This document shows positions 17,201 through 20,200 of a stretch of DNA of 64,000 bases, piece by piece. Position 1 is the stretch's first letter. Every line of letters begins with the position of its first letter. Made by a program: the position numbers and the translations under genes. The notes beneath the pieces are model-generated. The model did no database searches and was not told the origin of the DNA. It worked only from the letters and a program-made list of their open reading frames with translations. Source of the DNA: Mobula hypostoma (taxonomy: Eukaryota); assembly GCF_963921235.1 (NCBI RefSeq), contig NC_086107.1:105278001-105342000 (forward strand), given 5' to 3'.

Positions 17201-20200
17201 TGACCAGTGGTGTGCCTCAGGGATCTGTTCTGGGAACCCTTCTCTTCGTGATTTTTATAAATGACCTGGATGAGGAAGTGGAGGGATGGGTTAGTAAATC
17301 TGCTGATGACACAAAGGTTGGGGGTGTAGTGTATAGTGTGAAGGGCTGTCAGAGGTTATAGCGGGACATCGATAGGATGCAAAACTTGGCTGAGAAGTAG
17401 CAGATGGAGTTCAACCCAGTTAAGTGTGAGGTGGTTCATTTTGGTAGGTCAAATATGATGGCATTAATGGTAAGACTCTTGGTAGTGTGGAGGACAGCAG
17501 GATCTTGGGGTCCGAGTTCATAGAACATGCAAAGCTGCTGCGCGAGTTGAATGTGTGGTTAAGAAGGCATACGGTGTATTGGCTTTCCTCAGCCGTGGGA
17601 TTGAGTTCAAGAGCCAAGAGGTAATGTTACAGCTATATAGAAACCTGCTCAGACCCCACTTGGAGTACTATGCTCAGTTCTGGTCACCTCACTACTGGAA
17701 GGATGTGGAAACTGTAGAAAGTGTGCAGAGGAGATTTACAAGGATGTTGCCTGGGTTGGGGAGCATGCTTTATGAGGATAGGTTGAGTGAACTTGACCTT
17801 TTCTCCTTGGAGAGACATGGGCTACGTCCACACTACGCCGGATAATTTTGAAAACTAAGCCTTTTCTCTTTGTTTTGACCCTCTGTCCACACTAAAACGG
17901 CGTTTTCATCCCCCGAAAACAGAGATTTTCAGAAACTGTCTTCCAGAGTGAATAAATCTGAAAACGCCTAATATCCATTGTAGTGTGTACGGGGTAACCG
18001 GAGCTTTTTAAAACCGCTGTCATGACAACACCACAACAACAATGCTTTTTCTGCTTCTGCTTGGTACTGCGCAAGCACTGCTGTACGGCTGTTATAACGC
18101 GCAGTCGGTGTGAACGGCGTGAGAGTTAAATTGTAAAGTGAGCTTTTTTGACTATTTAAAAACGCTGCCATGATGTGCCGGAACAGATGGCCGCAGCATG
18201 GCATTTCATTGTTTTCTTGAATGCAACCCCACACATAACCTAACAATTTCAGAACAGACGGCAATGAGACTGAAGCCAGAAGAGTTAGAAATGTACTCAC
18301 CAACTACTTTGACCCATAGTTTACTGAATAAATAAGTATACTCACTTTGCCCTGTTTTCTGTCCTTGCTTGTATGAAGGTAGTTTACCTATTTATGCAAG
18401 TACTTCTCTGACAATAGATGTGTAACAGCCTAATGTAACATTGTATGGAAATACAAGATAACACTGATGCAGACATGTTTTATACAGTACATTTAACAAG
18501 GTGCTTTATTAATGCAACAGAGTTAGTCAGTTTTTTAATGTTCGTCGTCAGCCAGGTCATACTGTCCATGAACTCCCTGTCGGTTGCCTCCATATGCTCC
18601 AGTATTTGTTTTTTTCTAGTTTTAAGTCCTCCTGCGCGAGAACCAAGAGCAATTCCTTTGAAATTTTTTCTACTCTGTAACTGGACAAATACGCACCAAG
18701 TACACCGTTTCCTTTTCGCTTGTTTTCTGTGTGTCCTGCGCATGCCCAGTAGGAGGAGATTCGCCCAAATATCCGTCTAATGTGGACGGAGATATTTTGA
18801 AAAATGCTTAGTGTGGACACCTGTTGTTTTTACTCGAAACCGGCGTTTTCAAAATTATCCGGCGTAGTGTGGACGTAGCCATAGAATGAGAGGTGACCTG
18901 ATAGAAGTGTATAAGATGATGAGAGGCATTGATTGTGTGAATAGTCAGAGGCTTTTTCCCAGGGCTGAAATGGCTAGCACGAGAGGGCACAGTTTTAAGG
19001 TGCTTGGAAGTAGGTACAGAGGAGATGTCAGGGTTAAGTTTTTTTACGCAGAGAGTAGTGAGTGTGTGGAATGGGCTGCCGGCGATGGTGGTGGAGGCGG
19101 ATGTGATAGGGTCCTTTAAGAGGCTCCTTCATAGGTACATGGAGCTTAGAAAAATAGAGGGCTATGGGTAACCTGAGGTAATTTCTAAAGTAAGTGCATG
19201 TTCGGCATAACATTGTGGGCTGAAGGTCCTGTATTGTGCTGTAGGTTTTCTGTTTTTATATTTCTAACAAGCTTTTTATTTACAATGCTTATTGCATTTA
19301 ATTGGCTGACATAGAATTCCCCATGATCTCTGGTGCTTTTTCCACTGGCTTTTCACACTCAGTTTTGTAAAACCAGCTGCTTGCGCCATCTCCTGTCTCT
19401 CTACAGAATCTTTTCTATTTATCAGTACTTGTGTTCACATTTTTCATCAGCCCACATTGTAACCTCTTCCAGCTCATGTTTGACCTCACCAACCTGTTTT
19501 TTTTGTTGTATTGGGTCTTGTAACAATGGACTGTCAAAACAAAAATGTAAATACCTAAACACAAGGAAATCTACAGATGCTGGAAATTCAAGCAAACATA
19601 CAAAATGCTGGTGGAACACAGCAGGCTAGGCAGCAACTATAGGAAGAAGTACGGTCATCCTGACTTCATCAGTACTGATGAAGGGTCTCGGCCCGAAACG
19701 TCGACTGTACTTCTTCCTATAGATGCTGCCTGGCCTGCTGTGTTCCACCTGCATTTTGTGTGTGATGCAAATACCTTCTTGTCTGAATACTAAGTCGTTA
19801 ACAGCGCATCTTCAAGCCCACATTGTAGTTAACACCAACTCCATTCAGCCAAATATGATATGTTTCAATAAGGTGGAAATGAAAAATAATTGATTTCTTG
19901 GACCCAGTAAATACTGTGTGTTTACTCAGATTTGGAATTTTGACAAGCTTTTTTGAAAACTTGCATTTAATAATTTCTATTATTTAATCAAGAATGTATT
20001 CAAGAACATAAGCAGTTCTAACAAATTACATTTTTAAAGTTTTTTTTTGCACCTCATACCTTAAGATGTCAACTTAGCACAACTGGTTCTGCTAATCTTG
20101 TACAATTTGCAAGTTTTTTTGTCGTCTTTGATCCATTCCAGTGAATGAAACCTGAAGCTTTTATGAGGTCACTACTGCAAGTGTGTGCTGATGCACAAAA

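Follow-up and report, generated by a model that had tools for sequence, protein, structure and literature searches.

Insertions of EN+ Penelope-like elements (PLEs) are known to be structurally complex, with an inverted, 5'-truncated pLTR, an optional tail of 30-40 bp at one end, a TSD of 8-10 bp and a palindrome where the two copies meet head to head (Arkhipova et al. 2013, PMC3846280; Craig et al. 2021, PMC8557442). The CX2-5CxxC zinc-finger linker preceding the GIY-YIG domain has been described as a mark of PLEs of the Neptune/Nematis type (PMC8557442). Minimal type I hammerhead ribozymes reside in the pLTRs of PLEs, and in Schistosoma dual motifs occur on opposite strands, separated by 100-700 bp (Cervera and De la Pena 2014, PMC4209133), an arrangement attributed there to truncated PLEs. 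For the Poseidon PLE of Anolis, in vitro studies report that both target strands are nicked and extended and that RT starts at two internal sites bracketing the tail; hammerhead cleavage was dispensable, and a dimer was predicted (Frangieh et al. 2024, PMC11167929). In Drosophila Penelope, a 75-nt intron begins 46 nt downstream of the start site (PMC2377424), and the 3' end of this intron falls at helix I (PMC4209133). The short head-to-head PLE insertions, or stubs, described here bear on how PLE inverted repeats originate and on the role of the hammerhead.

The stretch analysed (the window) comprises 64,000 nucleotides of Mobula hypostoma DNA (NC_086107.1, positions 105,278,001 to 105,342,000), which is repeat-rich vertebrate DNA with LINE relics. 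A profile search located PLE ends at 15 loci in the window; the reversed-window control gave no match below E 2. Nine of the 15 are head-to-head hairpins (10255, 13615, 15050, 16405, 16535, 19545, 32719, 41530 and 44025), and the remaining six comprise a single-arm stub (33608), long 5'-truncated PLEs (5433, 22565 and 25690) and unclassed ends (53127 and 61925). An earlier note on this DNA had listed relics at ~15050, ~16560 and ~41530, all of which proved real, and two hairpins (~13615 and ~16405) are additions to its list. It had known no name for the architecture, which is that of the published PLE insertions with inverted pLTR plus tail (PMC3846280, PMC8557442). Its coordinates include the TSDs at 19545 and omit them at three other loci; Table 1 gives the positions adopted here.

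Table 1. PLE-derived features of the window, beginning with the parts of the hairpin at 19545-19776 (positions in the window; arm ends counted from C3 of the hammerhead core)
Feature	Positions	Strand	Remarks
Left TSD	19545-19556		12 bp, 1 mismatch against right copy; single copy at the X14 empty site
PLE tail, ~39 nt	19557-19595	-	Left arm only
Left (antisense) arm	19596-19656	-	5' end at +27/+28, the predicted hammerhead cut position
Junction filler, 7 nt	19657-19663	+	Last 6 nt repeat native bases -2 to +3 around the core start
Perfect palindrome, 20 bp	19664-19683		Hammerhead core forms its right half
Minimal type I hammerhead motif	19670-19707	+	C3 at 19675; cut site 19702^19703; A-G at stem I closing pair
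Right (sense) arm	19703-19764	+	3' end without tail
Right TSD	19765-19776		12 bp
Hairpin	10245-10496		Exact 10-bp TSD; left tail; sense arm starts at -1
Old decayed hairpin	13615-13800		Both arms begin near the core; TSD not found
Hairpin relic	15050-15554		Left arm to -4; ~300-bp insertion interrupts right arm; TSD not found
Older outer hairpin	16405-16760		Core at 16496; hosts the inserted 16535 element
Nested hairpin	16527-16707		Element 16535-16699; 8-bp TSD; sense arm from -3, antisense arm ends at ~+8
Hairpin	32703-32915		Exact 16-bp TSD; right tail; subfamily of non-hairpin 5433
Single-arm stub (33608)	33596-33694	-	Exact 9-bp TSD; 5' end at +3, within the core
Hairpin relic without core	41515-41665		Arms to ~+22 and ~+39
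Hairpin	44014-44256		Exact 11-bp TSD; palindromic junction at -3; second tandem unit also from -3
Young 5'-truncated parent-type PLE	24790-25799	+	15-bp TSD; GIY-YIG ORF end 24869-25393; CX4CX2C linker
Older long PLE relic	20802-22703	+	Hammerhead motif at 22570; tail
PLE 3' end	5433-5870	-	~335 nt of native sequence upstream of core
Decayed PLE end	53127-53240	-	~50 nt of native sequence upstream; adjoins LINE
PLE end with tail	61893-61980	-	(GA)n microsatellite in place of 5' part

At 19557-19764 the 208-base hairpin consists of two head-to-head copies of a PLE end, and its predicted fold is a single hairpin of -126 kcal/mol (z -17). The inverted arms (19596-19656; 19703-19763) match at all but 5 of their 61 nt, in agreement with the earlier estimate of about 5 mismatches over ~60 bp. 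Their derivation from a PLE terminal unit, also suggested earlier, is borne out by the match of the arm to the 3' end of the PLE at 24805-25784 (82% identity over 105 nt). Two further statements needed amendment. The perfect palindrome through which the arms were said to join is present, but the 7-nt piece at 19657-19663, which we infer to be a templated insertion, separates the left arm from it. CTGATGA was said to read outward on both strands: the minus strand does carry the core heptamer, within CTGATGAAG, but has neither stem II nor GAAA there, and the whole hammerhead, in damaged form, occurs on the plus strand only.

The 12-bp TSD reported for this element stands, with one mismatch over 12 bp or an exact match of 8 (19545-19556 / 19765-19776); a 12-bp match with one mismatch was reached by 1.3% of 1500 random position pairs. 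Those reported at three other hairpins are exact over 10 bp (10245-10254 / 10487-10496), 16 bp (32703-32718 / 32900-32915) and 11 bp (44014-44024 / 44246-44256), and at least 10 exact bp arise by chance in 0.3% of 1500 random position pairs. These TSDs exceed chance expectation. A TSD of 8-16 bp flanks five of the nine hairpins; none was found at the four oldest (13615, 15050, 16405 and 41530) or at 22565, and the match at 5433 (7 exact, 10 with one mismatch) is at chance level.

Occupancy of the 19545 site was assessed by aligning contigs of four runs (X1, X5, X10 and X14) to 19360-19960. The element is present in organisms A (X1) and B (X5), where the flank continues into the arm, although among the X1 and X5 contigs listed none covers it entirely. 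The orthologous site is empty in organisms C and E (X10 and X14): one X14 contig joins 19556 straight to 19776, and one X10 contig has 54 letters in place of the window's 320. Presence in the former pair and empty sites in the latter identify the hairpin as a true insertion, which occurred after the split from the X10 and X14 species and before that of A and B. The PLE unit is very abundant in all four species, since 35,065-49,778 contigs per run aligned to this region.

Every base of the minimal type I core is present on the plus strand at 19675, with A-G at the 2.1-1.1 pair. Immediately 5' of the core stands A, where C makes up 94% of the aligned X1 depth, so that the first stem I pair is broken; the minimal pattern is matched at 25695, 22570 and 5524. 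The predicted cost of holding the ribozyme stems in place is 11.3 kcal/mol for the hairpin against 3.9 for the isolated arm, with native copies in between at 4.8-8.7; the difference is modest. An Rfam search, at the gathering threshold and at E up to 10, found no hammerhead and only hairpin-driven microRNA matches far below the gathering score; the minimal motifs seen here escape Rfam. It is improbable that the hairpin at 19545 works as a two-ribozyme unit, and the hammerhead is likely a passenger whose cut site rarely sets the junction.

The young PLE at 24790-25799, of parent type though 5'-truncated, has a pyrimidine-rich 3' region and an intact hammerhead motif at 25695. Its ORF (24869-25393) matches Pfam GIY-YIG (E 6e-5), contains the linker CKRNKCYTC (CX4CX2C), and shares 92% identity with a protein of Mobula hypostoma and 82% with one of Hypanus sabinus; in the best homologue (92%) a YIDD RT motif lies upstream. 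This copy is inserted in a DNA transposon (24681-27259) whose terminal inverted repeats are 51 bp long and agree at 98%; fragments of transposase-like ORFs lie at 26324-27189. A pyrimidine tract and YAG stand directly before the hammerhead in all copies, and a GTAATT donor-like site overlaps the ORF end in two of three long PLE copies, at ~22226 (plus strand) and ~5794 (minus strand). The pyrimidine-rich 3' region of the PLE may be a retained intron.

The window contains further nested or repeated structures. The 16535-16699 hairpin sits inside the older PLE hairpin at 16405-16760, just 3' of the latter's hammerhead motif, and terminal repeats of PLEs may be preferred targets of the elements themselves. 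At 61980-62050 a PLE end is adjoined by a long (GA)n microsatellite, which replaces its 5' part. A short inverted repeat at 46458-46577 (42-nt arms, 81%) belongs to an unrelated family with copies near 45630, 52700 and 60970. Small palindromic elements at 63459-63559 and 27560-27617, one of them around a (TA)n tract, are possibly MITE relics. Two copies of a ~1-kb repeat (17820-18885 and 27888-28941), ~91% alike and bounded by 35-bp terminal inverted repeats, likely represent a non-autonomous DNA transposon.

A less ordinary property of the PLE hairpins is where their arms begin. Positions are counted from C3 of the CUGAUGA core, with the predicted cut site at +28, and the endpoints are manual calls on decayed copies. 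At the 10 short loci the 5'-most ends fall at -1, ~0, -4, -1, -3, -4/-5, 0, -3, +22 and, for the solo stub, +3. The longest arm therefore starts within about -4 to +3, a 10-nt span, at nine of these 10 loci and at nine of all 15; the count of 10 leaves aside three long copies (~-335, -890 and -1770), one at ~-50 and one unscorable. The earlier observation that the junction lies at or just 5' of the hammerhead core thus survives as a clustering of ends, with a simulated chance probability of 1e-5 if ends are uniform over -45 to +45 and 7e-4 over -10 to +45, or 4e-4 and 6e-3 when the two weakest calls are removed. The ends of the shorter arms spread over -5 to +40. The cut site coincides with a single hairpin arm end out of 18, that of the 19545 left arm, and with none of the 5'-most ends. 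Because the solo stub at 33608 and the second tandem unit at 44129 begin at the same hammerhead edge, the clustering is independent of fold-back. A structural RT stall was rejected as the cause, since by reasoning it would be expected at the 3' edge of the ribozyme; microhomology energy alone does not favour -4.

The contigs of the four runs add little here. Among the 15 joints listed of 273, eight have an end at 19669-19680 and at least four are mapping artefacts of the hairpin reference; ends in that interval are unsuitable as a test for a hot spot, as the reference lacks native upstream sequence and sense arms start aligning there. In all four runs the loose-end consensus before 19675 is AT-rich from ~10 nt upstream, with an agreement of 0.35-0.36 that makes it a weak hint.

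Restriction of the tail to one arm, as claimed before, holds for all eight scorable hairpins, the ninth having lost one end; if arms chose freely (p=0.5) the probability would be 0.004. In five of the nine (10255, 16405, 16535, 19545 and 41530) the tailed arm lacks hammerhead sequence present in the tail-less arm, and each arm has sequence missing from the other. Barring a later deletion of the centre, neither arm can then have been copied from its partner.

The 19545 hairpin is a target-duplicated insertion of two head-to-head PLE stubs, and we consider it probable that these were made in one event, in which the PLE enzyme nicked both target strands and two short cDNAs were primed and joined. 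The endonuclease would cut the target with a stagger of 8-16 nt. With one nick priming at the outer of the two tail sites and its partner at the inner one, exactly one arm would carry a tail. Extended for 100-140 nt from a start in the 5' terminal repeat of the RNA, the cDNAs would run off where hammerhead stem I has its 5' edge, at an RNA 5' end or some other hard stop. The two ends would then be united by end-joining, in the course of which trimming, snap-back and the addition of templated filler would leave the small palindrome. At 19545 the right-arm cDNA would have reached -5 and snapped back over 9 nt on the native CAG-NN-CTG, whereupon the 6-nt templated repeat would have been added and the left arm joined. 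That the two cDNAs were primed separately, one per tail site, we infer from the one-arm tail, the non-nested arms and the behaviour of the anole PLE in vitro (PMC11167929).

Several observations pull against parts of this scheme. Run-off from the RNA 5' end is the simplest reading of the stop at the 5' edge of the ribozyme, given that cleavage would yield ends at +28, that a stall would fall at the 3' edge and that self-pairing energy does not favour -4, yet we rate it at less than an even chance. Against it stand the Drosophila Penelope intron that ends at helix I, downstream of the start site (PMC4209133, PMC2377424), and the pyrimidine tract with YAG found here at the same spot, which may therefore act in splicing, as an acceptor, in place of starting transcription. 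Native sequence at this edge (22563-22571, 25688-25696 and, on the minus strand, 5524 and 53188) is initiator-like in three of four copies and splice-acceptor-like in four of four, by the respective consensus motifs; it is also constrained as stem I. Two further points weigh against the scheme: on its left side 19545 has an arm that stops at the cut site, and the arms are unpaired in the tree for two of the five asymmetric old hairpins, in a tree where 8 of 14 branches are open. Loss of the centre at a time following insertion could also be a source of arm asymmetry.

Among other routes to the same structure, single priming with fold-back retains some weight though we think it unlikely. The cDNA would reach the hammerhead 5' edge, snap back on the native quasi-palindrome CAG-NN-CTG and copy itself, and the endonuclease would resolve the far end at the tail boundary. 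This accounts for the palindromic centres at 19545 and 44025 and likewise predicts a tail on one arm; junction palindromes have been read as self-priming (PMC3846280), and resolution of the tail by the endonuclease has also been proposed (PMC8557442). Nevertheless, the fold-back of RT at the ribozyme suggested earlier fits poorly with the five hairpins in which neither arm could be copied from the other, even if later central deletions could mimic this. The majority of junctions are non-palindromic, the solo stub stops at the same place, and a self-dimer energy scan of cDNA ends from two native copies favours +7 to +24 and +50, not -4. Long palindromes are unstable, and internal deletions do occur in several arms (32719, 44025 and 33608), as would suit longer head-to-head PLE insertions later shortened to ~100-nt arms by deletion at the palindrome centre; this is the least probable history considered, as it leaves without reason both the sharp stop at -4 to +3 and the start of the solo stub and tandem unit in the same interval. 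Scarcely more credible is that hammerhead cleavage makes short templates, RT copying the 3' cleavage product so that arms stop at the cut site. The left arm of 19545 (+27/+28) and one joint among those listed, near the GTCGAC cut region, are what it would predict, but all the other arm ends lie elsewhere, most long arms hold the whole core upstream of the cut, and cleavage is dispensable in vitro (PMC11167929).

The remaining alternative concerns the unit that moved. The earlier note had offered a hairpin SINE or retrozyme family, in which non-autonomous masters would be transcribed, processed by the hammerhead and re-inserted whole by the PLE enzyme, or else a stereotyped insertion product. 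Evidence from the window supports the latter and shows that the hairpins formed independently from several PLE subfamilies and are not one family. Each bears the diagnostic bases of its own subfamily; in the tree the arms of 32719 group with non-hairpin 5433 (100/99), those of 19545 with non-hairpin 25690 (97/93), those of 44025 pair at 87/85, and older arms have no firm placement. A comparison of junctions between loci, advised earlier, found none shared: all nine differ. X1 depth, a rough guide and not a copy number, is 20-30 at 19658-19660; unique flanks have ~8 and the arms 1e5-6e6, which puts the centre of 19545 close to single-copy. It is true that hairpins are the commonest product in the window (9/15 loci) and alike in size, that pLTRs alone are mobilisable in trans (PMC3846280), and that one paralogous X1 contig crosses the 19545 centre, gapless, at 80% identity; from that contig, similar junctions do occur, not amplified. 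Distinct junctions, subfamily-specific arms grouping with non-hairpin PLEs and a centre near single-copy nonetheless make a mobile family very improbable, and the minus strand is without a hammerhead while the plus-strand motif has a broken closing pair and is costly to form in the hairpin. Tandem hammerhead repeats define retrozymes (bioRxiv 2026.07.22.740005); 19545 has one complete motif, and only 44025 has a tandem, of two units and partial. No Pol III promoter head (tRNA, 5S or 7SL) matched Rfam at the gathering score in the window, or near 19545 at E up to 10. Pattern scans of viral and metagenome contigs gave 0 matches.

Endpoint clustering, the one-tail rule and non-nested arms make the mechanism of PLE insertion testable; what is gained concerns this mechanism, the kind of element being already known. 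Beyond the joining of two separately primed cDNAs at single insertions, we advance, as less likely than not, the broader idea that the stubs record the PLE mechanism itself, an asymmetric dimer priming both strands at two tail sites within the 5' terminal repeat of the RNA and cDNAs running off a start at the first base of stem I. If true, both the inverted repeats and the one-sided tail of PLEs would be explained, and the hammerhead would be an mRNA 5' leader and not a processing site. The density of stubs in the window implies hundreds of thousands genome-wide; the genome is a very large natural sample of minimal products, in which twin priming and self-priming are separable by counting. If transcribed in introns, hairpins of ~200 nt would be ready-made double-stranded RNA; lizard Penelope copies and a frog palindromic repeat are heavily A-to-I edited (PMC5625713).

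Our search of the literature, with Dfam, Repbase and subscription papers outside its range, returned nothing on such hairpins in cartilaginous fish or rays, nor on 5' ends clustering at the hammerhead. With described EN+ PLE insertions the hairpins share head-to-head inverted terminal units, a tail on one arm, a TSD, a junction palindrome and the link to RT and GIY-YIG; they differ in that both partners are ~100 nt with no ORF between, that they are the majority product in the window, and that their 5' ends cluster at the hammerhead edge, a clustering absent from the accessible parts of PMC3846280 and PMC8557442. The CX2-5CxxC linker before GIY-YIG, found also in the 24869-25393 ORF, likens the parent to Neptune/Nematis-type PLEs as far as this motif goes. 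The Anolis Poseidon PLE, with RT starts bracketing the tail and both strands nicked, belongs to a clade without the zinc-finger linker, and the available text of that study (PMC11167929) does not address hairpin products or the RNA 5' end. Like the pLTR hammerheads of PMC4209133, those described here have a minimal core with one additional base ahead of stem II, and their stem III is short and palindromic; unlike the Schistosoma pairs, for which the portions of that paper at hand contain no junction mapping, the 19545 cores abut and only one of the two motifs has all its core bases. Non-LTR retrozymes, as reported by Li et al. (2026, bioRxiv 10.64898/2026.07.22.740005), are likewise non-coding, PLE-derived, equipped with a type I hammerhead and found in a chondrichthyan, but as described they are head-to-tail tandems with a whole hammerhead per unit, whereas the elements here are head-to-head with unique junctions. 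The architecture is thus known; what remains of interest is that endpoints cluster, that exactly one arm has a tail and that arms are often not nested.
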